A stretch of 64,000 nt of DNA, taken from assembly GCA_045629665.1 (NCBI GenBank), contig JAZQRQ010000073.1:7892-71891 (forward strand). The letters run 5' to 3'. Positions 1,188-16,012 of the stretch are shown in pieces. The position numbers and the translations under genes were made by a program. Source of the stretch: Faecalimonas sp. Its GTDB lineage: Bacteria > Bacillota > Clostridia > Lachnospirales > Lachnospiraceae. How positions within the stretch are numbered: the first letter of the stretch is position 1; each line of letters starts with the position of its first letter. The notes below the pieces were generated by a model that saw only the letters and a list, made by a program, of their open reading frames with translations, had not been told where the DNA came from and did not search any database.

Positions 1188-1646
1188 CTAAACCACTTGC
1201 TTCAATATCTGATAAATGGCCCTTCCATCCTCTCGTCCAAATTCATGCAATGAACCCGTATACAGAATTCTTGGCGTTTTCATGTCTTGCTTCTCTATGA
1301 ATTTTAAAATATTATCCGTTTTTTCTTCGTATTCTGTTCCCTCAAAAGTTCTTATGATTTTATTTACAAATTCCCTGTGTTCTTTTATTCTCGCTTGCTC
1401 CGAATCTATATTCAGGCTTCTCACTTTCTCATGTATTAACCTTCTGCGAGTCACATCCTCTGGTGCGTTTAATGACAACAGTGCGTTTTCTATCATATCT
1501 ATGTACTCCGCACGAATCTTTTCACAACTCTGACTATAAAAAATAACAAGCGTATCGTTTTCTTTTAGATATTCCGCACCTTTGAGTCCGTCGGTTGTAA
1601 ATACATTCTCATAATCTACCAGTATTGTTGCCAATGATTTCACCAC
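1188..1646 (-). CDS. PIN-like (NYN/PIN7-type) domain protein, probably internally deleted
   Basis: N-terminal ILVDYENV...GLKG...LVIFYS fits PIN-like domains; the central KNALDF-type segment expected in this family is absent. Confidence 0.5.
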   Translation of the reverse strand: MVKSLATILVDYENVFTTDGLKGAEYLKENDTLVIFYSQSCEKIRAEYIDMIENALLSLNAPEDVTRRRLIHEKVRSLNIDSEQARIKEHREFVNKIIRTFEGTEYEEKTDNILKFIEKQDMKTPRILYTGSLHEFGREDGRAIYQILKQVV

Positions 1647-1655
1647 CTTATTGTT

Positions 1656-2647
1656 TTATAAAATTTCAATTTCTTTATTGACTAATCTATTTAATATACC
1701 CTTTACAATTATTTTGTCCTCTATCTTGTTAATGGCGAAGCACTTTTTTCCCGCATCTTTCAATGATGCACCAATATGATACACACATTTTTCATCTAGG
1801 ATTAAAAACCTATCGTGAAACACGTTTGTATAACTTACCTCTAGTGATGGATATTGGTGATTAAAGTTATCTATATCTTCTTGAGACAATTTTGTTTTTT
1901 TTAACGTATACATAAGTACCTCTACGTTAGGATTCTTTTTGGCCAAAATATTCAAGGTTCCAATATCAACATAATTGTCTATCAGTACGATTGTCTTTTC
2001 TGCTTTGGATACTAATTGGGTGAGCAAACTAAACGCATCATATATTTGTCCTTCGAAGAAGATTTTTTGAGATACTTCTTTGTGTTCGGATATATAATTA
2101 AAAATTTCTTCGAAATTTTTTTCTGTTTTTTCTTCAAATTGTTGCCTTTTTATGTCTCCCTCAATTTGCATACTTTCTAACTGATTTACCTTCTCCAATA
2201 AAAATGTATCATGTGCTAAATATCGTCGCATCTCCACAAAAGTTTTCATAATACGTACGCTAACTTTCACCGCAATTTCACTTCTCAAAACAGCAGAAAG
2301 CATTGCTATTCCTTGTTCCGTATAAACGTATGGTAATTTTCGTCTACCCCCATACCCATTATCCTCTCTTTGAAAACTTGAAGTTCCAAATTGGAACTTC
2401 AAGTTTTCATACTCCGCTTTTGTTAACTGAAAACAGAACTCTTCAGGAAAACGATTTATATTTCTCTTCATTGCCTTATTTAGGTTTTTGTCTCTACTTG
2501 ATACAAAACTGCTAAATCACTATCTAGCATTACCTGTTGTCCGCGTACTACATATATTAAGTTTTTAATTGTTTTTTCTGTAATTTCCAAATTAGCTAAC
2601 GGTTCTTCCTCCTGAATTACAACTTCCATCTTTTCTTTCTCATCCAT
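1656..2647 (-). pseudogene. ORF6N-domain protein with C-terminal PLD-like motif, split by a 1-nt frameshift
   Basis: Frame from ATG 2647 (after GAAAGGGG RBS) gives ...NLIYVVRGQQVMLDSDLAVLYQVETKT*; the adjacent frame continues LNKAMKRNINRFPEEFCFQLT. The break is in an A5 run (T5 at 2485-2489). C-terminus has FHDRFLILD...GASLKD. Confidence 0.85.
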
Positions 2648-4773: not shown

Positions 4774-4887
4774 GTTAGTTCTCTCCTTTGTGGTGCACTT
4801 GTGCCCCGTGGAAATATCTGTATTTGTTTGCTACTATAGCGTACTTTAACTCAAATGACATTTTACGAATACTTTCGTATGTATACA

Positions 4888-5682
4888 TTATGCACCTCGA
4901 AAAATCACATCATTATGATATTCTATAAACTGACGTCCTGGATAAAATCTATCTGGTAGAATAATTTGTTTACCTTCATAGGAAAGCAACCATTCCTTTG
5001 ACTCTTTATCCATATCTGCATCCTTCAACACCTTCGAATTGAGAATGCAATAGTTTTTATCAATAGTAATCAACCCTTTATCAAAAGCCTTGTCATGGAG
5101 AGCATTGAGACACAGTCCATTGCTAGGATTGGTTCTTTCAGTCTTTTCATCACTATCTAGCCATGGTTTAATATGACTAGCAATTAAAACATTTGGCAAT
5201 TCCATTCCTGTGACACAACATCTATTCCTGTATGCAGAAAGTACCGACATTCTAAAGAAGTATTGCCCCACTCTTGCCTTCATTGCTTGTTCACGATATT
5301 TACCATCTGGCAGTTTCACTATTTCTTCTACATCGTCAATCTCGGCAACTTCTTCAATCGTCGTTTGACTCATCTTAGCTTTAATTATTTGTGCCTGATA
5401 AGATAACTCTGTCCAATCTTTAGCAAATTCTTGAAATATTTCTCCATCTAGCTTGCTAGCATTCGACATCCCAGAAACATTCCTTGCTCTTAATTCGGGG
5501 TCAAAATGTGCAAGATTCGCCATTTTCAATCCTACAGAACTAGGTGTTCTTCCTAGCAAGTTAGCCAATGCAATAATATCCTTATTTGCTTTGCTAATCT
5601 TTGAAAAGGGTATTTTACAGTATAAATCAAAAGCTAAAATTGTTTCTTCTCTAGTCCATTTTACACGATATTTTTCTGCCAT
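4888..5682 (-). CDS. HNH endonuclease (putative restriction endonuclease)
   Basis: RCCVTG...LIASHIKPW...NPSNGLCLNALHDKAFDKGLITID HNH signature; N-terminal WTREETILAFDLY helical domain. Confidence 0.85.
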   Translation of the reverse strand: MAEKYRVKWTREETILAFDLYCKIPFSKISKANKDIIALANLLGRTPSSVGLKMANLAHFDPELRARNVSGMSNASKLDGEIFQEFAKDWTELSYQAQIIKAKMSQTTIEEVAEIDDVEEIVKLPDGKYREQAMKARVGQYFFRMSVLSAYRNRCCVTGMELPNVLIASHIKPWLDSDEKTERTNPSNGLCLNALHDKAFDKGLITIDKNYCILNSKVLKDADMDKESKEWLLSYEGKQIILPDRFYPGRQFIEYHNDVIFRGA

Positions 5683-5714
5683 ACATTCACTCCGTATTTA
5701 ATAAACAATAAATT

Positions 5715-6647
5715 TTACATTTCTATTGGTTCATGATAGTTACACTTAGTTCTATCAAAGTAACCTTCGCATCCCCAAAACCAATTGTATCCACGCCTTA
5801 GCACTAATGTCCTTCCACAGTTCGGACATTTTCTTTTTAAACGCACAGATGCTCTCTCATCAATACCCTCTCTTATATTCGGAGTATAAATCTCCGGCAT
5901 GGAATGCATGTTCCCTGTTTGAAAATAATAATTTTCTGCATCCATTTTTGTTCTTCCATTTAACATCGCACTTTGTGGTATAATGCGCCCTTCTTTTATT
6001 AATTTAACTAGTTCGCTATGATAAATAAAGCCCGGAAAATCATATGTCCAATTTTTTCTATAAATAGTTTCAATCAAAATATCCCTGATATTACTTGGAA
6101 TTTCATTTTCTCTTTGATATAGAAGCTTTTTCTCTTTCATCAACCCTTCACCATCTGGTGTGAATCTAACCAACACAGTATAATCGTATTTGGCTGTTCC
6201 TTCCAAAAGATTTGGGATGTACTCTCCTTTTTTATTCCAATCTTTGGTTTCCAACAGCAATAAATCCCCATATGATTTTGTTGATTTTACAGAAAAATGT
6301 TTACCTTGACAATCCAAATCAAAGGAATCCCATTTGCCCAACTTATATTCTGAAATATCCGGTTTGTCTACATCTATATGACGACTTGTTAAATAGCGAT
6401 ATAGCGCAAACTCCGCCATTTTCCCTTGAAAAGTATTGATGAATATTTGCCCCATTGTTCTATGCATCACTCCACCACTTCTGGAATCTCTGTGGGCACC
6501 CTTTTTCGCATAAGACATATTATAGGCAAAATTAAAACATTCTCCTTTGTCTGATTGTAGCATAGTTGCATATGCCAAAAAGTGTTTCTTTTTTTGTACG
6601 TAGTAGTTATTTAACTCTATACGAAGTTCACCTGCTTCATAATCCAT
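5715..6647 (-). CDS. Putative PD-(D/E)XK restriction endonuclease with C-terminal C4 zinc ribbon
   Basis: QGKMAEF...WDSFDL...SVKSTK fits a PD-(D/E)XK core; C-terminal CPNCGRTLVLRRG...FWGCEGY...C resembles the topoisomerase-type zinc ribbon; 13 nt downstream of the C5 MTase. Confidence 0.55.
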   Translation of the reverse strand: MDYEAGELRIELNNYYVQKKKHFLAYATMLQSDKGECFNFAYNMSYAKKGAHRDSRSGGVMHRTMGQIFINTFQGKMAEFALYRYLTSRHIDVDKPDISEYKLGKWDSFDLDCQGKHFSVKSTKSYGDLLLLETKDWNKKGEYIPNLLEGTAKYDYTVLVRFTPDGEGLMKEKKLLYQRENEIPSNIRDILIETIYRKNWTYDFPGFIYHSELVKLIKEGRIIPQSAMLNGRTKMDAENYYFQTGNMHSMPEIYTPNIREGIDERASVRLKRKCPNCGRTLVLRRGYNWFWGCEGYFDRTKCNYHEPIEM

Positions 6648-6660
6648 TTACTTTTTCCTC

Positions 6661-7629
6661 TTATACACAACTCTTATATGCTTCTGCTATTTTTCCTGCT
6701 ATACGCTGTATTACCGATACACACACAGAATTACCAGCCTGCTTGTATAATCTCGCATCGCTCATATCGGTTGGTAGTTTGAATTTTTTAGGAAATCCCT
6801 GTGTGTTAAAACATTCATGCGGAGTCATTTTTCTAATTCCATGCATTGTTTTTATCAAGCATACATTATGACCACCTTCACCCTGATTTGCCGTAAGTGT
6901 AGGAACTACTCCACTTTTATTTTTTCTTACATATTTTCTTCTCCACTGATAAATAGCATTTTCATCATCCATTGCTTCGACAAGCTGTTTGTATATATCT
7001 CCTTTGTATTTTCCATCTGTATAATAATATTTTTCATCGACTAAATTTTTGAAATCAATAATATCAGAAAGTTTCTTTTTCAATGGTACAGGTAAAGGAA
7101 ATTCGAAGCTCTTATATTGTTCAATATCTTTGAAAGCCACAATATAGATTCTTTCTCTATTCTGTGGAATGTTTCCATATTCCATTGCATTTAAAACGGC
7201 ATATTTTACATGATAATTTTCTTTTTGTAATTCATCTACAATGACTGCAAAGGTATTTCCATTGTCATGTCCAACCAAATTCTTTACATTCTCCAAAAAA
7301 ACTATTTGAGGCTGCTTTGCTTTTATTATGCGTACCAATTCAAAAAACAAGGTCCCCCTACCTTTTTCATCATCAAATCCTTTTCTATATCCTGCAACGC
7401 TAAATGCTTGGCAAGGAAAACCAGCTAACATCACATCGAAATCCGGTATTTCTTCATTCTTTACTTCATGTATATCCCTACAATCTACCTTAACCTTGCT
7501 ATTTAACTCATAAGTCTTTACTGGATATGGATCAATTTCGTTTGCATAAATAACTTTAAATAATTTTGCACTCTCGAATCCAATATCTATTCCTCCCACT
7601 CCAGCGAAAAAGGATGCACATCTCAACAT
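6661..7629 (-). CDS. DNA (cytosine-5) methyltransferase, Bsp6I/LlaDII/NgoFVII-like (GCNGC/GCSGC family)
   Basis: Motifs FAGVGG, GFPCQAFS, ENVKNL, QNRERI, QAGNSV; target region YQWRRKYVRKNKSGVVPTLTAN closely resembles M.Bsp6I as recalled. Confidence 0.92.
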   Translation of the reverse strand: MLRCASFFAGVGGIDIGFESAKLFKVIYANEIDPYPVKTYELNSKVKVDCRDIHEVKNEEIPDFDVMLAGFPCQAFSVAGYRKGFDDEKGRGTLFFELVRIIKAKQPQIVFLENVKNLVGHDNGNTFAVIVDELQKENYHVKYAVLNAMEYGNIPQNRERIYIVAFKDIEQYKSFEFPLPVPLKKKLSDIIDFKNLVDEKYYYTDGKYKGDIYKQLVEAMDDENAIYQWRRKYVRKNKSGVVPTLTANQGEGGHNVCLIKTMHGIRKMTPHECFNTQGFPKKFKLPTDMSDARLYKQAGNSVCVSVIQRIAGKIAEAYKSCV

Positions 7630-7659
7630 AAATAATTCCTCCTAAATTCAACTACTGAT

Positions 7660-7688
7660 ATCATACCAAAAATCGCGGCGCGCCGCAA
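7660..7688 (-). promoter_or_regulatory. Sigma-A promoter of the C5 MTase overlapping a palindrome of two GCSGC sites
   Basis: Minus strand TTGCGG (7688-7683), 17 bp, TG-n-TATGAT (7665-7660); perfect palindrome GCGGCGCGCCGC at 7675-7686. Confidence 0.75.
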
Positions 7689-7720
7689 TGAATTTTTATA
7701 AAAAAGAAGACCAGATTTCC

Positions 7721-8935
7721 CTAGTCTTTTTCCTCTCCGTAAAATTGTTCATATGTTCCTACTTCAGCAAAATCAATTGAATAATCCAATTCTGCATTTT
7801 TAGTAAAAATAACACTGTCAACACCGAACAACTCCAACATTTCATATGTAATAACTGTACCTTCAGGTACTTCAAAAACATCTCTTAACAACCATTTCCC
7901 GAGCACCTTGTTTGGATTGCTCATTACCGATTTCCCAACCAACGCATTGTTCTTGTCTGCCTCTTGACATACCTTTGCAGATATTGCGGTTCCATCCGGC
8001 AAATGCAAAGTAAATGGAGTATCTCTTGGTGGAAAGAAAATTAAATCTCTTTGTCTATCTACCGCCTGATAAGGAATGTATATTTCATTTACATCTCTCG
8101 CTCGACCAGCTGCATTCCATTGATTTAATCCACTCTTTTCTGCAACAAACTTTTCTTTATCAGGTCCTCTTCTGGAATACAATGGCAAGCACAACATTGG
8201 TTTGTTATCCATTTTCATTTTTGGTATCGCCTCAAATTCTTTTACAATGCCTTCTCTATTAGTTAGCCAATCAAATTTAGGGTTACTTCCCGAATTTGAA
8301 CGCGCGAAAGATAGTAAAATTCTATAAGGATCTTCTACTACATTTACCTCAAATGAATCTAACAATTTTAAGTCATCAAATATCATATATAATGTGTTCT
8401 TTGACACACTGAAATGATATGTATGCTGTCCATCTGTAAAATATGTGTTATTATCATTGCCCCTATTAGGAATTATTTTAATGGAATCTATATCAATATA
8501 ATCAAATGCACATTCTAAAATTTGCATCATGTTTGGAACACGCTTGACAACATGATATATCATCTGTTCTATACCATGAAGCCTTTTAGTAACCCTTATT
8601 CTCTCATTTCTATACTCAGCAATTCTTTTTACAAGTTCAATCCCTGTAAGTTCTGAATAATTCTTCTTCAGTTTACCAAACTCTGCTACCTTCTGGTCAT
8701 CATTTCCAGTCCATGTTTTGAGTCCAATTCCAATACCATCTTTTTTAGCATCGGCAGAACAATCTGAACGCGCTAGGTTTTCAGCTTCTAAATATCTGCA
8801 GAAAATATTTTCATGCGCTCGATATGCCAAATATGGACAATCACTTTCAGAAAAGAGATTTGACAACTGTCCCATTATTCGAAGCATTTCTTTGTAATTT
8901 TGTTTATTTAAAAAAGGTTGTTTATCGTAAAACAT
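7721..8935 (-). CDS. NgoFVII-family restriction endonuclease (PD-(D/E)XK domain plus B3-like domain)
   Basis: LSNLFSESDCPYLAYRAHENIF, SADAKKDGIGIGLKTW, KSGLNQWNAAGRARDVNEIYIP, SNPNKVLGKWL; ATG 8935 after GAAGGAG. Confidence 0.8.
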   Translation of the reverse strand: MFYDKQPFLNKQNYKEMLRIMGQLSNLFSESDCPYLAYRAHENIFCRYLEAENLARSDCSADAKKDGIGIGLKTWTGNDDQKVAEFGKLKKNYSELTGIELVKRIAEYRNERIRVTKRLHGIEQMIYHVVKRVPNMMQILECAFDYIDIDSIKIIPNRGNDNNTYFTDGQHTYHFSVSKNTLYMIFDDLKLLDSFEVNVVEDPYRILLSFARSNSGSNPKFDWLTNREGIVKEFEAIPKMKMDNKPMLCLPLYSRRGPDKEKFVAEKSGLNQWNAAGRARDVNEIYIPYQAVDRQRDLIFFPPRDTPFTLHLPDGTAISAKVCQEADKNNALVGKSVMSNPNKVLGKWLLRDVFEVPEGTVITYEMLELFGVDSVIFTKNAELDYSIDFAEVGTYEQFYGEEKD

Positions 8936-9206
8936 ATCGCCTTCTCCTTTCAGATGTTTCAACACAACTTGTTTTTTTATTTTAACACTTGTACTAATAT
9001 TTAGCAATCTCGTATCTTTTCAAAACATTTATTCAGATTATTCTTTTATATGAAAAAGTAGAATCGAATATAAATAAATTTTCTATAACTACTGCACCCA
9101 AATGCTAGACTAAAACGATTTTCGTTATAATGTAAATTGTACGCCAAAAATCGTTCGTTCACGTGTCTATATATAATATAAACCTATAAAAAGGAGGTGA
9201 ATTCAA

Positions 9207-9611
9207 ATGGCTCAAGCAGGCGATAGATATATTGTAGAACTAACCCCGTCTCAACTGGGGTGGGGCGAAGAACGATATACTAATTCCAGACATACGAGAC
9301 AAGGTGAGGCCTATCTAGCAATACCTCGTAGATATGCTAAAGCATACAATTTATTTAATTCAAACCACACAAATGGACAGGACCTTCTTGGAACAAACAT
9401 TTATAACTGTATAAGTGTGGACGGCTTTCTAAATGACCAAGTAAAATCTCAAGGTTGCGTTCATGAAGGCGATGAATTCGCAAAGCAATTTGCAGGTAAT
9501 AATAATCTCAAACTTCTCGGCGATTGGTATAAACACATGCAAGCTGATGTCGGTGATAAGGTCGAAGTATATTTTCTTTCCCCTATTGATATTCAGCTGA
9601 CACTATTGTAA
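9207..9611 (+). CDS. 134-aa protein, putative stand-alone B3-like DNA-recognition domain
   Basis: Strong RBS AAGGAGGTGA and own terminator; motif order parallels the C-terminal domain of the neighbouring NgoFVII-family nuclease. Confidence 0.6.
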   Translation: MAQAGDRYIVELTPSQLGWGEERYTNSRHTRQGEAYLAIPRRYAKAYNLFNSNHTNGQDLLGTNIYNCISVDGFLNDQVKSQGCVHEGDEFAKQFAGNNNLKLLGDWYKHMQADVGDKVEVYFLSPIDIQLTLL

Positions 9612-9618
9612 AATTTTT

Positions 9619-9660
9619 CGGCTGTCGTTTAACAAAACACCTTGTTACGACAGCCGTTTT
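9619..9660 (+). terminator. Intrinsic terminator
   Basis: CGGCTGTCGT (9619-9628) / ACGACAGCCG (9647-9656) followed by TTTT. Confidence 0.8.
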
Positions 9661-9896
9661 ATATAATTTTATTTGATTTTAGTGTGTTCCTTCTGTGAGG
9701 TTGTAGCCTTGCATGAGTTTCTCATCCTACATACGAAAATAAAATTTATTTATTATTCCAAAAAGCATGCCGTATCTCCAGTTCTACTACAAAGCAACAA
9801 ATTGATTATCAAACCGATACATATAAAAAATAGGGGGTTTTAGCACACCAATGACTGTAGAGCTATTCAATGGAGTCATGTACTATTTTCAAAATA

Positions 9897-11297
9897 TTAA
9901 TCATCACATTCTATAACATTTGTAGATTTCGTTGTTTTTACAAACACTAATATATGCTCTCTCGTCATTGTTGTTTGTGGTTCTTTTTTTTCACCAACAT
10001 AAGAACTTATTTCCGGCATCCTTTTATTATGAATTTTCCTTGTAAAACTCGTCACTAAAGATAACTGGTACTGCGAACAAAGTTCAATCATTATATTGTT
10101 CATGAGTATTTCTTTTTTCGCAATTTTCCTATTCCCTAATGTCCACACCGAAACTGAGTTTTGTTTCATTTTCTTAGACAGCACAGACAAGAATAAATCA
10201 TAATCGCTATAAAAAGCGATAAGTTTGTTAACCTGTTTGACCGCACTTGCTTCAATTTCATTGCAGTGACTTTTTAAAGTACGTGATTTTCCCAACACGC
10301 TTTTTCGTCTTCTTGTCATACTTTTGTTTGCGGATTTACCACCCAACGATGCATTGTCAATTCCACATAAAGTGGATAATAAATCTTCGTCAAAATCATC
10401 ATCAATGTCAGAGCAATCAATCCACCTTAATGGCATAACCGAATATTGTCCATATGAAACCGTAGTGTGATTATCCCCATAAGGTGGCGAGGTCAAAACC
10501 AAATCAAATTTTTGCTTTGTATGTTTAAGATAAGTAATTGAATCCGACAAAACAATTTTTATGTTTCCCTTGTACGAATTCCCGTCTTTTTTAAGGTTTC
10601 CAGAAGTTTTCAATGTACTATAAAACGAGAAATATTTCTTTTCATTGTAGTTTAATGTTTTCAAAAAAAGCTCTATTGCGTCTTTATTATAATTAGCAAT
10701 ATCCGTTTTTTCTTTAATATGCAATTTATAGGTACAATCTCTAGAATTAGACACTATTCTGACAATTTCACAAAATGTTGCCCAAAAAAAGCGTCTAACA
10801 TTTATATCGTTATCTTTAATAATAGCTTCACGGAGAATTGTTAAGTCTTTTACGGCTTGTTCCGTAAACCATTTGTCGATTCCCTCAAAAGAATGTCTTT
10901 TTATTGAAGACGTCCTCAGAATATCGATTTCCTCTTTCAATTTTTTTACATGTTTCTCTAATATCTCGGGATTAATTATTGTTGTTTTAACTTTGCAGAG
11001 TAAAACTGCAAGTGGATTGATATCTATTCCAACTATATCAAGTCCTTTCAACATTCCTTCAACTAAAACAGTCCCTGATCCGGCAAATGGATCCAATAAT
11101 TTGAGACGCTTATTATTAGACTGCTCAAGACACACTTCTAAAATTTCCCTTTGCATTTTAGGAACCATCATAGCAGGATAAGTACAAAACCCATGAACAT
11201 AATCTCGCTCACTTTTTCTTTTTCCGCGATAATCCCAACGATCTTCAGATTCCAAAGTGAGTTGCTTAAACCTTGATTTAATATATTCAATACTCAT
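9897..11297 (-). CDS. N4-cytosine DNA methyltransferase, M.MvaI-like
   Basis: YPAMM, LDPFAGSGTVLVEG (motif I), TSPPYGDNHTTVSYGQYS (motif IV SPPY), RKIHNKRMP; same blocks as recalled for M.MvaI. Confidence 0.85.
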   Translation of the reverse strand: MSIEYIKSRFKQLTLESEDRWDYRGKRKSERDYVHGFCTYPAMMVPKMQREILEVCLEQSNNKRLKLLDPFAGSGTVLVEGMLKGLDIVGIDINPLAVLLCKVKTTIINPEILEKHVKKLKEEIDILRTSSIKRHSFEGIDKWFTEQAVKDLTILREAIIKDNDINVRRFFWATFCEIVRIVSNSRDCTYKLHIKEKTDIANYNKDAIELFLKTLNYNEKKYFSFYSTLKTSGNLKKDGNSYKGNIKIVLSDSITYLKHTKQKFDLVLTSPPYGDNHTTVSYGQYSVMPLRWIDCSDIDDDFDEDLLSTLCGIDNASLGGKSANKSMTRRRKSVLGKSRTLKSHCNEIEASAVKQVNKLIAFYSDYDLFLSVLSKKMKQNSVSVWTLGNRKIAKKEILMNNIMIELCSQYQLSLVTSFTRKIHNKRMPEISSYVGEKKEPQTTMTREHILVFVKTTKSTNVIECDD

Positions 11298-11323
11298 TTT
11301 ATCACCATCACGAATTTTAAAAA

Positions 11324-11352
11324 ATTATACTTTTTGATATATAAATTGTCAA
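11324..11352 (-). promoter_or_regulatory. Perfect consensus sigma-A promoter for the N4C MTase
   Basis: TTGACA (11352-11347), 17 bp, TATAAT (11329-11324) on the minus strand. Confidence 0.85.
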
Positions 11353-11383
11353 TAGAATATGAAATAACAAATGAATCAACTTG

Positions 11384-14194
11384 TTATTTTCTGTCATGAT
11401 AACAAGCACCATAAAATTCACACTGGATATTTTTACAAAAATCCTGATTTTTATTTTTGTCTACTTCAAATACCTTCTTATAATCATTCGTCTTAATAGT
11501 CTTTTCACATTCTCTTAATTTTTCGTTAAATGTATCTCTATCATCATCTAACAATTCAATTGTAGTAGGATTACTATTATTAAAATCATAAGATTCAATG
11601 TAGTCGACTTTTTCTCCAGTCAAGCTCTCGTATCCCAATACATATACCATTAATTGATTTTTTATTTGACTCTTAGTTAATACTTCGCTACTGGATTTAA
11701 AATCCACAAGAGTAATTGTGTGATTTAATTCATCTCTAACAAGATCTATTCTTCCATTGATAAACATATATTCATCAACACTAAAATCAATACTCTTCTC
11801 AGAAAACTTAATATACTTAAATCTAGAAGCATTGTTCTTAATATAGGAAGTCAGATTTCTCATTGCCTTTTCAGTCATTGCCTCATACAGTTTTGGAGAG
11901 CCGTATGGCAGATGTAAGTATTTTTTTACAATACTTGCAATAACCGTAGGATCATTATAACTAATTGTTTCATAGTTTTTGTGAATGTAATCTAACATAT
12001 TGTGGATTGATCTACCATAACCCATACGAATATTTAGAGGAGAACAAAAACCATATATATTAGTCATTTTGAATTTGTATGGACAATCAAACAAATCCTT
12101 AAGCAAGGAGAAATTCAATGTGATAATTTCATCCGCGGAGAATTTGGCTTTATTACTTTTTTCATATTCCTTGTCCAAATAGAGGCGAGTTTCTTTAAAA
12201 GGCGAATTCTTAGTCTCTACAAACGGAAATGCTGGAGCTTTATAATGTGTTTTCCCACTATCTGAAATATGGTTAGACCGAGTAAGAAAAAGAAACTTTT
12301 CACTTCTAGTCATTCCGACATAAAACACTCTTCTAATACTTTCGTCATCATCTTCATACTGTTGTTTTATTGTATTGTCATCTATGATCCCCCAAGCATT
12401 TAGACCACCAGGATTTCGTTGCGGAAAAATTGAATGTTTTGTTAAAAAAGGCATGAATACTACTGGATATTCCAATCCTTTAGATTGATGAAATGTCATA
12501 ATCCTTAAACACTTTACAGCCTTGAAATTAGGCGACAACCAACCTTCCGGATATATTTCTGGAGCCTCAAGAGTCAAAAAAGTCTCAAATGCTTTCAGTC
12601 TATATGAAGGAACCATATCAAGATTAATTTTTTCAAAATCATTAATCATCTCCGTAAACTTGCCCCAATTGTAAAGAATCTTTTCATCTGCAACACAGAA
12701 TAACTGTAAATCCATAAACAATTTTCTGATTGAACCTTGAATAGTATATTCATAATCATCCGATTCAAAAGGCAATTTTGTAAATTCTTCGATACTCTCT
12801 TTAATCTTATCTCTGCTAAGTGAAGTATATTTACACCATCTTGCTACAAGTTCAACAGGTACACCTGACACTTTGATCTTTTTCATTGTTTGTTCTTTGT
12901 TTGGCCCTTTATGATCAAATACAATCCGAGAAAAAATCAAAGAAAGTGTATCACATAAAATCATAATTTCGTCAGAATTAAACAAATTCTTTGTTCCTTC
13001 AACAATAAAGTCAATATTATTTTTTTCGAGTTCAGTGATTAATTCAGGTATTCTCTTTACAGAACTAACAAGGATAACCATATCGTCTAGATCCAATCTA
13101 AACTCTACTTCCTTACGTACATATTTACATCCAATCAATTGTTTGATTTTATTTACAATAAAATCAACTTCTGAGGCCCGATTGTCGAACTCATATGTAA
13201 TTATATCTCCTAGTTCATATTGTTGACTTTCGTTACTTTGCATGTTTTTTGCTATACGATTATTATTTTGGTTTATGACCTGCTTTGAAATTTCAGTAAT
13301 ACCCTTACTGCTTCTAAAATTGATATCTAAATCGATTTTTTCAACATTGGCATACGAATTAGCAAAGTTTTTTATGAAATTCAAATTGCTACCACGCCAT
13401 TGATAAATAGTTTGATCATCATCTCCTACAACACAAACAATTGCCCCTTGTTCAGAAAAGTACTTTATAATTTTTTCTTGTGCATCATTTACATCTTGAT
13501 ACTCATCAACTATTAAATATTTAATTTTTTTTGCAATAAAATCATCAAAAACACCACTCTGAAGTTTAGTGAGTGTAGTTGAAATAATGGAAGTGAAATC
13601 GAAAAATTTATTTTTTATTAACGTGGTTTCATACTTCTTGATATGTCCTTGAAGAACTGCGTCAAGTTTTTCTACCCCATGCTCTCTTCCAATGTCAAGA
13701 AACGTTTTATAGGCATTAATTGCTTTTGTTTTTACATCTGCCCTACTCCCCTCATTGAAAAGCTGATATGTTGTGCCATTAACTGCATGATATTTAACAT
13801 CATAAATACCATTTTCTCTGCGGTATCTCTTTATAAACAACTTAGTTTGAACATCATTTAGTGTTTCAAATGTTTTATATTCATCAGAAAACTCTTGCAA
13901 CATGTAAAGACAAAAACCATGTATTGTTCCAATATACATATTTGCAAGTCCCTCAAGAGAATGCTGTTGCTTTTCATAAGCTTCAAATACTTTTTGCTTT
14001 AACGAAGCCGCTGCTTTTTCTGTATAGGTAATAGCCACGATATTTTCAGGCTCTATACTAGGTTCATTAAGTAATTGAAGAATATGCGCAACCATAGTAG
14101 AAGTTTTTCCCGAACCTGCACAAGCAACTATTTGCATATTTTGACCAATTGTATTAATAGCTTTCTCTTGATTTTTCGTCCATTTTGTACTCAT
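11384..14194 (-). CDS. UvrD/REP-family SF1 helicase with C-terminal PD-(D/E)XK (RecB/Cas4-like) nuclease
   Basis: ACAGSGKT, LIVDEYQD, VGDDDQTIYQWRG, NFRS, MTFHQSKGLEY, RVFYVGMTR; nuclease GRIDLV...LVDFKSS...QLMVY; Cys in DCPYKF plus CKNIQCEFYGAC. Confidence 0.9.
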   Translation of the reverse strand: MSTKWTKNQEKAINTIGQNMQIVACAGSGKTSTMVAHILQLLNEPSIEPENIVAITYTEKAAASLKQKVFEAYEKQQHSLEGLANMYIGTIHGFCLYMLQEFSDEYKTFETLNDVQTKLFIKRYRRENGIYDVKYHAVNGTTYQLFNEGSRADVKTKAINAYKTFLDIGREHGVEKLDAVLQGHIKKYETTLIKNKFFDFTSIISTTLTKLQSGVFDDFIAKKIKYLIVDEYQDVNDAQEKIIKYFSEQGAIVCVVGDDDQTIYQWRGSNLNFIKNFANSYANVEKIDLDINFRSSKGITEISKQVINQNNNRIAKNMQSNESQQYELGDIITYEFDNRASEVDFIVNKIKQLIGCKYVRKEVEFRLDLDDMVILVSSVKRIPELITELEKNNIDFIVEGTKNLFNSDEIMILCDTLSLIFSRIVFDHKGPNKEQTMKKIKVSGVPVELVARWCKYTSLSRDKIKESIEEFTKLPFESDDYEYTIQGSIRKLFMDLQLFCVADEKILYNWGKFTEMINDFEKINLDMVPSYRLKAFETFLTLEAPEIYPEGWLSPNFKAVKCLRIMTFHQSKGLEYPVVFMPFLTKHSIFPQRNPGGLNAWGIIDDNTIKQQYEDDDESIRRVFYVGMTRSEKFLFLTRSNHISDSGKTHYKAPAFPFVETKNSPFKETRLYLDKEYEKSNKAKFSADEIITLNFSLLKDLFDCPYKFKMTNIYGFCSPLNIRMGYGRSIHNMLDYIHKNYETISYNDPTVIASIVKKYLHLPYGSPKLYEAMTEKAMRNLTSYIKNNASRFKYIKFSEKSIDFSVDEYMFINGRIDLVRDELNHTITLVDFKSSSEVLTKSQIKNQLMVYVLGYESLTGEKVDYIESYDFNNSNPTTIELLDDDRDTFNEKLRECEKTIKTNDYKKVFEVDKNKNQDFCKNIQCEFYGACYHDRK

Positions 14195-14544
14195 AATACA
14201 ATCTCCTTTCTAACATTAAATTTAATTATATTTGTTATAAAAAAGCAAGGCAAACCAAGGGCACTCACGAACCCTTAATCACCTTGCATCGATAACCTCC
14301 CTTATATCCTAACACACTTTCTCCAAAAAATCGACAATTATTTCCTTATTCTATCTGTTTTCTCACACTACGCCACGTCCACTTCCACAATTTTTGTCCT
14401 GAATTTGCCCTAAAACTCTCTTGTCAATCTCTACAATCCTTAAAAAATCTAGCCTTTTCACCATACTATCAGATTGCTGCCGCAGCATATAAATAACACT
14501 ACACAACAAACACACATTATTTTCGCTTCATATCTCCCGATTGT

Positions 14545-14598
14545 ATTTAGTCGCAATCCTTCCAAATTTAGTCGCAATGTTTTCAATTTAGTCGCAAT
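14545..14598 (+). repeat. Three direct repeats of ATTTAGTCGCAAT
   Basis: Exact 13-mers at 14545, 14566 and 14586; degenerate ATTTAGTCCGC at 14647. Confidence 0.9.
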
Positions 14599-14632
14599 CT
14601 ACCTCCAATTACCCCTTTTATGCCGGCTTTCG

Positions 14633-14830
14633 TCACTGTTTCAGCCATTTAGTCCGCTCAAATGGGACTTTTTTTATGCCCATAATCTTTTTCTGACATT
14701 CTATTTTCCCTCCATATGAAGGATGTCTAATATATTGTTCTTCCGAAAGCCCTAATTGTTTCTGTGCTTTTCTTCCAATGGCATAAATATTTTCATCGCC
14801 GATATTAAATATTCTCTGTGTTTTTCCAAG
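14633..14830 (-). pseudogene. Possible C-terminal remnant of a uracil-DNA-glycosylase-superfamily gene
   Basis: Own translation gives ...NIYAIGRKAQKQLGLSEEQYIRHPSYGGKIEC..., with no start codon after an in-frame stop. Confidence 0.4.
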
Positions 14831-14884
14831 TTATTCATATTTCAATATTCTTTTGTTTTTGACCTTCCATTTTGGAATATCAAA

Positions 14885-16012
14885 CTACTCCTCCCCCTTC
14901 TCAAACGCCTCTGCTACCCCCACCAGCAACTCTCTTATCCCCAAATGCTGCGGGCACACTTTCTCACACTTTCCACACTTCACGCAATCCGACGCCTTCC
15001 CGCCATTTTGCGTATGGATATCATAATACCATCCGCTATTCCAATTGTTGTGGATTGTCTTCGCATTTAGATCTGAGAACAAATCCGGAATCGCAATCTT
15101 CTGCGGGCACACATCCATGCAATATTTACATGCGGTACATGGAATAAGTCCCTGTGCACTGATAATATCGCGCACTTTGAAAACCGCGGCAAATTCTTCT
15201 TCGCTCAGCGGTTTGAAATCTTTCATGTAACTGAGATTATCTTCCATCTGTTCCATATTACTCATGCCAGAGAGCACCATCATCATGTTGTCGAAGCTTG
15301 CCGCAAATCGAATTGCATAACTTGCGTTGCTTCCGCCGCCAAGGTCATCGAATATCTTCTGTGCTGCCGTAGGAAGTTCCACGAGGCTACCGCCTTTTAC
15401 CGGCTCCATGACGATGACAGGTTTGCCGTGTTTTACGCACACTTCATAGCATTTTCTCGATTCGATTCCCACATCATCATAGTCCAGATAGTTGAATTGA
15501 ATCTGCACGACTTCGATTTCCGGGTACTCGGTCAGTATCTGCTCCAGCACCTCGGCTTTGTCGTGGAAGGAGATGCCGACATGCTTTACTCTTCCTTCTT
15601 TTTTGAACTCAAAAGCATGCTCGTAGGCTCTGCATTTTTTGTATTTTGCAAAGAATTCTGCATTTTGCGCATGCAACAAGTAGAAATCAAAGTAATCCAC
15701 ACCACAGGCTTCCAATTGCTTTTCAAAAAGCGGTACGATTTCTTCTTCTTTCTCGAAAAAATATGTAGTCAATTTATTTACTAAAATGTAATCTTCTCTC
15801 GGATAGCGTTTCACAAGACATTCGCGAAGTGCCGGCTCGCTTTTCTCGCCGATATAACCGTGAGCGGTATCAAAATAGTTGAAACCATTTGCCATAAATG
15901 CATCTATCATCTTGCAGGTTTCCTCATAATCCACTTCTTTCCCTTTCATTGGGAAACGCATGCACCCGAATCCAAAATTCCCTTTAATGTCATCAAAAAA
16001 TTTATTTTTCAT
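14885..16012 (-). CDS. Aldo/keto reductase with C-terminal 4Fe-4S dicluster
   Basis: GFGCMRFP, NYFDTAHGY, DYFDFYLLH, VMEPVKGG; CTACKYCMDVCP and CVKCGKCEKVCP. Confidence 0.92.
   Translation of the reverse strand: MKNKFFDDIKGNFGFGCMRFPMKGKEVDYEETCKMIDAFMANGFNYFDTAHGYIGEKSEPALRECLVKRYPREDYILVNKLTTYFFEKEEEIVPLFEKQLEACGVDYFDFYLLHAQNAEFFAKYKKCRAYEHAFEFKKEGRVKHVGISFHDKAEVLEQILTEYPEIEVVQIQFNYLDYDDVGIESRKCYEVCVKHGKPVIVMEPVKGGSLVELPTAAQKIFDDLGGGSNASYAIRFAASFDNMMMVLSGMSNMEQMEDNLSYMKDFKPLSEEEFAAVFKVRDIISAQGLIPCTACKYCMDVCPQKIAIPDLFSDLNAKTIHNNWNSGWYYDIHTQNGGKASDCVKCGKCEKVCPQHLGIRELLVGVAEAFEKGEE

Follow-up and report, generated by a model that had tools for sequence, protein, structure and literature searches.

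A UvrD-type helicase-nuclease linked to an MvaI-family methyltransferase, a candidate restriction-modification-like module in a Faecalimonas genomic island

In a 64,000-nucleotide stretch of a Faecalimonas sp. contig (JAZQRQ010000073.1, positions 7,892 to 71,891; hereafter called the window, with positions counted from its first letter), a gene encoding a UvrD-type helicase fused to a nuclease (P0001) was found upstream of a gene encoding an MvaI-family DNA methyltransferase (MTase; P0002). We rate it as roughly an even chance that the pair constitutes a horizontally mobile module resembling a restriction-modification (R-M) system, in which the helicase-nuclease would fill the restriction slot. 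This reading was favored because the two genes are strictly linked, co-diverge, and are under purifying selection, because the pair also occurs without other recognizable R-M genes nearby, and because the other neighbors of the MTase family are restriction-type proteins. The two genes are co-oriented on the minus strand and separated by a spacer of 86 bp, and the unit has the following features.

11384..14194, minus strand: UvrD/PcrA-type superfamily 1 (SF1) helicase with a Cas4/AddB-like PD-(D/E)XK nuclease at its C-terminus (P0001, 936 aa; supported by Pfam, the AlphaFold2 (AF2) fold, and the proportions of nonsynonymous (pN) and synonymous (pS) differences)
14102..14116, minus strand: Walker A, helicase motif I (G27-S-G-K-T31), invariant in 61 homologs
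11402..12118, minus strand: nuclease domain, residues 693-931 (Pfam and homolog alignment)
12083-12085 (C704) and within 11402-11437 (C920, C925, C931), minus strand: cysteine codons of the nuclease
9897..11297, minus strand: MvaI-family amino-methyltransferase, predicted to be N4-cytosine specific (P0002, 466 aa; motifs, PADLOC, and homologs)
11073-11087 (FAGSG) and 10479-10493 (TSPPY), minus strand: MTase motifs
11324..11352, minus strand: perfect sigma-70 consensus promoter for the MTase gene, TTGACA-17-TATAAT, inside the 86-bp spacer
14225..14253, minus strand: promoter-like site upstream of the helicase-nuclease gene, TTGCCT-17-TATAAT (consensus match only, 10/12)
9619..9656, no strand: strong hairpin between the MTase gene and a convergent open reading frame (ORF) of 134 aa (-21.4 kcal/mol, z -4.6)

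The first-pass annotation, made from the sequence alone, had suggested counting how often the two families occur together. For this comparison, loci were collected around helicase homologs at 83, 82, 72, 59, and 50% identity, from a metagenome scan and from a viral scan, and further loci were taken around a 75%-identical MTase. The helicase-nuclease gene was rare and patchily distributed (1 of 399 genomes of the class); the co-occurrence counts rest on metagenome loci, and the class-wide genome search matched only the window's own genome. Wherever a helicase shared at least 49% identity with P0001 and the locus was informative, an MTase of the same family was encoded directly downstream, i.e., in about 20 loci representing at least 10 neighborhoods (the window, L001/2, L003, L004, L005, L006-8, L108, L110-118, L120-122, L124, and L129-133), with a distance of -38 to +99 nt between the two genes. 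The only loci in which the MTase was absent downstream, L109 and L119, both end at a contig edge. The pair sits in defense-island or mobile-element settings whose gene content differs widely, including type I R-M genes with Septu, a C5 MTase with HNH, an integrative and conjugative element (ICE) with ArdA and PcfJK, histidine kinase and FtsX genes, PRiA4, AbiTii, and type III Mod-Res genes. No third conserved gene was found upstream or downstream of the pair, the neighbors being different in every context.

Within subclades, the identities of the two proteins changed in step (helicases 79 to 87% with MTases 75 to 85%; helicases 57 to 83% with MTases 55 to 88%). When compared with their orthologs, both genes had pN values of 0.10 to 0.15 and pS values of 0.62 to 0.73 (helicase pN 0.10 to 0.12 and pS of about 0.70; MTase pN 0.14), and both are thus under strong purifying selection. 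In one subclade, it was also noted that a gene for a 299-aa 5'-nucleotidase-family protein (L111, 7508-8407; L112, 9138-10037), matching the PADLOC candidate PDC-S08 (E 1e-129), overlaps the stop codon of the MTase gene, as if it were co-transcribed with the pair.

The helicase part of P0001 matched the Pfam families UvrD-helicase (PF00580, E 3e-52) and UvrD_C (PF13361, E 5e-29), and the C-terminal nuclease matched PDDEXK_1 (PF12705, residues 693-931, E 1.5e-14). In an alignment of 61 homologs, reaching down to 23% identity, SF1 motifs I, II, III, IV, V, and VI were all invariant, including G27/G29/K30, DEYQD at 230-234, the acidic run of motif III, R294, Q570/G573, and R630. In the nuclease, H731, D817 (GRIDL), D831/K833 (VDFK), Q847, and Y851 were likewise invariant. 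One cysteine precedes the nuclease core (C704) and three follow it (C920, C925, and C931); C704 and C920 were invariant, while C925 and C931 were at least 90% conserved. Such a 1+3 arrangement binds an iron-sulfur (Fe-S) cluster in AddB and Cas4, and the cysteines of P0001 conform to this AddB/Cas4 Fe-S-type pattern, marking a putative metal site. The AF2 model of P0001 was of high confidence, with a predicted local distance difference test score (pLDDT) of 87 and a predicted template modeling score (pTM) of 0.87. Since its best solved folds were AddA of the AddAB complex (4cej_A, E 1.5e-31), followed by UvrD, PcrA, RecB, and AdnAB, P0001 is, as modeled, a single-chain AddA/RecB-like helicase-nuclease.

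The TTGACA-17-TATAAT site in front of the MTase gene is the sole perfect match in the 64-kb window (0.02 expected), and its -10 element is partly kept in the orthologous spacers of L003 and L108. The promoter-like site upstream of the helicase-nuclease gene (10/12) is weaker than that of the MTase gene, and a ribosome-binding site, GAAAGGAG, lies between it and the ATG at 14194. At the other end of the unit, the hairpin at 9619-9656 is probably a two-way terminator that closes it. The co-oriented two-gene unit, the perfect MTase promoter, and the intact SF1 motifs with a RecB-like nuclease and a 1+3 cysteine pattern had all been described in the first-pass annotation, and each of these stood up to closer analysis: both ORFs are in place, the promoter was located in the spacer, and Pfam and the homolog alignment agreed on the protein.

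In P0002, FAGSG (71-75) precedes TSPPY (269-273) by about 195 residues, which is the alpha order of motifs, and the protein matched the PADLOC model MTase_II (E 5e-88). TSPPY is typical of N4-cytosine MTases, M.MvaI among them (PMC2532716), and the product of P0002 is most likely N4-methylcytosine (m4C), judging from this motif. The TSPPYG-x-N block was invariant across all helicase-linked MTases, and a fold search of the MTase gave weak, generic methyltransferase matches only. Three homologs on plasmids of C. perfringens, Geobacillus, and L. lactis were about 30 to 35% identical over their full length (the one compared directly with P0002 showed 34% identity, E 1e-79), and each adjoins a Pfam MvaI_BcnI protein (E 1e-47 to 1e-53). 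By its motifs and by these homologs beside MvaI_BcnI restriction endonucleases (REases), the P0002 family is MvaI-like, as had been proposed. The phrase "helicase-nuclease in place of an MvaI/BcnI nuclease" is also a fair description, because the MTase homologs adjoin MvaI_BcnI REases; no MvaI/BcnI-type ORF was found at 4800-14900, where every scanned ORF was assigned otherwise.

The nearest relatives of P0002 outside its own subclade (62 to 64% identity) were paired with yet another kind of protein, a GHKL ATPase (HATPase_c_3, about 850 aa), together with a protein of about 577 aa. In a maximum likelihood tree, the MTase subclade of the window grouped with these GHKL-partnered MTases (support 100/99), and this group then joined the MvaI/BcnI-partnered MTases (92/92), apart from the other helicase-linked MTases. 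The helicase-linked MTases are therefore not monophyletic, which implies at least two partner changes, always within one MTase family. Comparison of subclades A and B pointed in the same direction, since their helicases were 70 to 73% identical and their MTases only 33 to 39%, showing that an MTase replacement had occurred. The replacement coincided with a shift from tight coupling of the two genes to a spacer of 76 to 99 nt with a promoter-like -10 element, and the replacing MTase was again drawn from the same family. One MTase family thus has three kinds of partner, the MvaI/BcnI endonuclease, the GHKL ATPase pair, and the UvrD-Cas4 helicase-nuclease; this is an evident example of modular evolution among defense systems, and the family offers a practical guide to further partners.

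The GHKL cassettes (L009-L014, 8001-13675; L134, 6001-11653) are composed of genes for a C-protein-like helix-turn-helix protein, the MTase, the GHKL ATPase (about 850 aa), and a last protein of 577 aa with no family match. They were found on integrative elements, both from human gut metagenomes and from Desulfosporosinus, and look like a MORC-type R-M-like system.

If the pair is R-M-like, the MTase would mark host DNA at a short motif, with the specificity residing in its variable middle region, and, being expressed from its own very strong promoter, would be made before and in excess of the nuclease. P0001 would take the slot that is filled by the MvaI/BcnI endonuclease or the GHKL ATPase pair in sister systems, and its UvrD-type 3'-5' motor and nuclease would use ATP to unwind and degrade unmarked DNA, such as that of a phage or plasmid. 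The methylation chemistry, the target motif, the restriction activity, and the discrimination of unmethylated DNA are what we infer, together with the manner of discrimination, in which either the MTase would guide the nuclease as a type III-like complex or the nuclease would read the mark itself; CCWGG, put forward in the first-pass annotation, is a guess at the motif. Since the exchange of the MTase for one of only about 35% identity was tolerated, recognition of the methyl mark may be a task of the nuclease; by analogy with Chi, this may take place during translocation, with the mark serving as a "self" stop signal. A stronger claim, that the pair is a self-sufficient and so far unclassified ATP-dependent R-M system with a single-chain SF1 Fe-S-nuclease as restriction enzyme and an MvaI-family m4C self mark, is a plausible but more tentative proposal. 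If true, it would extend the classical R-M types, whose motors are SF2 or lacking, by an architecture that combines an SF1 helicase with an Fe-S nuclease, and it would assign a role to a helicase-nuclease family that is widespread but, since 2017, has been recognized from genome context alone.

That family is the UvrD-Cas4-like fusion, named by Hudaiberdiev et al. in 2017 and suggested by them to have an ancillary defense role (PMC5704561). It was predicted, in silico only, to be a defense component by virtue of its methylase neighbors, and two contexts were published for it, type III Mod+Res and Dcm+Vsr (PMC5704561). P0001 has the same architecture, a UvrD SF1 helicase with a pfam12705 nuclease and four cysteines, and the Mod-Res context was reproduced here for homologs at 23 to 35% identity, so that the assignment to this family is by architecture and context. 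The association of UvrD-Cas4 with R-M genes was thus foreseen in outline in 2017 (PMC5704561), whereas neither a minimal, strict pair with an MvaI-family TSPPY MTase nor the swapping of partners is described in that paper.

The ancillary role suggests the main rival explanation, in which the helicase-nuclease would be an accessory "finisher" rather than a restriction subunit. It would load on ends or nicks produced by other restriction systems and degrade the DNA, while the MTase linked to it would either serve a different partner or protect DNA independently. We consider this unlikely, although a number of contexts fit it. The matches listed in a scan of genome contigs were distant relatives. 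Helicase homologs at 23 to 35% identity were located directly upstream of type III Mod+Res genes (L020, L024, L043, L070, and pDY28-poxtA; Mod+Res genes also neighbor the homolog of L128), and one distant homolog (L126) has a C5 MTase, Vsr, and an MspI-type REase as neighbors. In subclade C (50% identity), the pair is part of a four-gene Mod-Res-helicase-MTase operon with overlapping stops and starts (L006, L117, L118, L122, and L124), and in L121/L122 a GHKL ATPase gene also follows the MTase gene. Other R-M genes are adjacent to the pair in the window, L001, L003, and L108; moreover, the fold matches end-processing enzymes, and the same reading was reached in the 2017 study (PMC5704561). However, L116, in which the pair lies between kinase and permease genes, and L112 had no recognizable R-M genes among the neighboring ORFs scanned, and none were recognizable for L004 in a precomputed Pfam table. 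An accessory nuclease would also leave a private MTase with no obvious use, yet the MTase is retained throughout the loci, its divergence parallels that of the helicase, and its replacement came from the same family.

The same contexts weigh against the R-M-like reading itself: distant UvrD-Cas4 homologs (23 to 35% identity) adjoin complete type III or type II R-M systems, subclade C is joined to a Mod-Res operon, the MTase of L121/L122 could serve the GHKL ATPase that follows it instead, and the window carries other R-M genes alongside the pair. Further points on this side come from P0001 and its family. Distant helicase homologs in L025 and L026 are found beside PolA or DinB, without an MTase, and because distant homologs adjoin either R-M systems or PolA/DinB, the fold is neither intrinsically methyl-dependent nor intrinsically toxic. 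No sequence- or methyl-reading domain was recognizable in P0001, and the tolerated swap to an MTase of about 35% identity speaks against a tight, co-evolved complex. In the literature, we found no paper testing a UvrD-nuclease and methylase pair.

It could also be hypothesized that the pair does not act in defense at all but serves a mobile-element function (establishment, plasmid competition, or anti-restriction methylation combined with DNA processing) or methyl-directed repair or regulation, which we regard as quite improbable. MvaI/BcnI enzymes are relatives of MutH, and UvrD works together with MutH in mismatch repair, a kinship and a cooperation that would suit a repair function; some distant homologs are, as mentioned, located beside PolA or DinB. 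ICE or conjugative settings were recorded as well, with ArdA and PcfJ/K in L004, integrases in L003 and L129-133, and TnpV, and the ICE-borne ZomB, which has a like architecture, alters host gene expression (PMC9453066). Against this, the neighbors of the pair are mostly defense genes (type I and type III R-M, Septu, AbiTii, and PDC candidates), the other partners of the MTase family are restriction-type, and a patchy distribution and a low-GC island fit cargo defense genes.

Among known systems, type III R-M (EcoP15I-like) is the nearest working analogy to the pair, as both consist of two genes, one for a methylase and one for a helicase-type ATPase with a C-terminal PD-(D/E)XK nuclease. However, type III Res belongs to SF2 (ResIII), while P0001 is of the SF1 UvrD type with an Fe-S-type nuclease and no ResIII match; type III Mod is a beta-class N6-adenine MTase, while P0002 has TSPPY in the alpha order and lacks the T3RM_EcoP15I_C domain; and the gene order is reversed. 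The MvaI/BcnI type II systems have an MTase of the same family, with TSPPY as in M.MvaI (PMC2532716), but their own endonuclease is replaced here by a 936-aa helicase-nuclease predicted to be ATP dependent. Like P0001, the AddAB, RecBCD, and AdnAB enzymes combine an SF1 motor with a RecB-type nuclease at the C-terminus, and the cysteine staple of P0001 recurs in AddB. Nevertheless, these are core genes whose products have a partner subunit and are tied to Chi recognition, whereas P0001 is single-chain, rare, mobile, without an adjacent partner gene, and linked to a methylase; the host genome has a separate AddA elsewhere.

ZomB, carried by the S. pneumoniae element ICESp23FST81, resembles P0001 in its described architecture (a UvrD-like helicase with a Cas4-like nuclease) and in being borne on a mobile element; it has single-stranded DNA-stimulated ATPase activity and degrades linear DNA in an ATP-dependent manner in vitro (PMC9453066). 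It differs in having, as described, two Cas4-like domains and a role in regulating pneumolysin expression, with no methylase partner reported (PMC9453066). The best PADLOC matches of P0001 were to GajB of Gabija (E 2e-56), reflecting the shared UvrD fold only; P0001 differs in having its own nuclease domain and its methylase linkage, and no match to GajA (OLD/TOPRIM) was found among the flanking ORFs scanned. Likewise, none of the core genes of DISARM (DrmA/DrmB) or BREX (BrxC/PglZ/PglX) was found among the island ORFs scanned, in keeping with the initial view that the pair did not match the Gabija, DISARM, or BREX gene sets.

The pair lies in a low-GC island at about 4900-14300 (GC 0.30 to 0.35 compared to about 0.43). 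The interval varies between congeners; a clean empty site was not found in them, the AKR-to-patatin interval there holding other genes. Besides the pair, the island encodes the following.

7721-8935, minus strand: type II REase (P0003) with an NgoFVII-like B3 DNA-binding C-terminus (PADLOC REase_II, E 1.7e-83)
6661-7629, minus strand: C5 cytosine MTase
5715-6647, minus strand: 310-aa protein with a topoisomerase-type zinc ribbon
4888-5682, minus strand: HNH_2 endonuclease at the far end of the island (PADLOC HNH model, E 4e-88)

The presence of P0003 (true start M25, 404 aa) raised the question of whether P0002 could instead pair with this REase as an ordinary type II system, with the helicase as an unrelated neighbor. 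The REase gene is on the same strand, 890 bp downstream of the MTase gene, and its product matches REase_II, as listed above. However, homologs of P0003 (70 to 80% identity) always occurred in a trio of REase, C5 MTase, and zinc-ribbon protein, with or without Vsr, and neither the helicase nor a P0002-like gene was present in these trio loci; conversely, homologs of the MTase never had a P0003-type REase beside them. A convergent ORF and the strong hairpin also separate the MTase and REase genes. P0003 is not the partner of P0002, because its constant companions are a C5 MTase of its own and the zinc-ribbon protein, and with this conserved trio the ordinary type II pair was rejected as an explanation, leaving it at most a very slight residual probability. 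The trio (5715-8935, minus strand) was also seen to recur in gut metagenome contigs. Taken as a whole, the reading offered by the first-pass annotation was partly supported: the co-occurrence and the MvaI-like label held, while the type II REase at 7721-8935 and the in silico link of 2017 had been overlooked.

HNH_2 proteins, which are also found near the pair in L003 and L005 and are unrelated to that of the window, were considered as a third component and rejected, as the three share only the HNH domain and such proteins are absent elsewhere. The 134-aa ORF convergent with the MTase gene (9207-9611, plus strand) encodes a B3-like DNA-binding domain only (RE_NgoFVII_C, E 8e-6); it had no detectable similarity to the B3 domain of the REase and no homolog in any fetched locus. 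At the island edge, upstream of the helicase gene, three exact copies of the 13-mer ATTGCGACTAAAT are arranged with a spacing of 20 to 21 bp (14545-14598, minus strand; 0.14 expected). This triple array had no other occurrence in the genome or in related loci, and it may be a protein-binding array or the remnant of an integration site. Finally, a second low-GC patch (1188-2471, minus strand) encodes an ORF6N-domain protein (271 aa) and a weakly PIN-like protein (152 aa), which may form a small toxin-antitoxin or defense pair.

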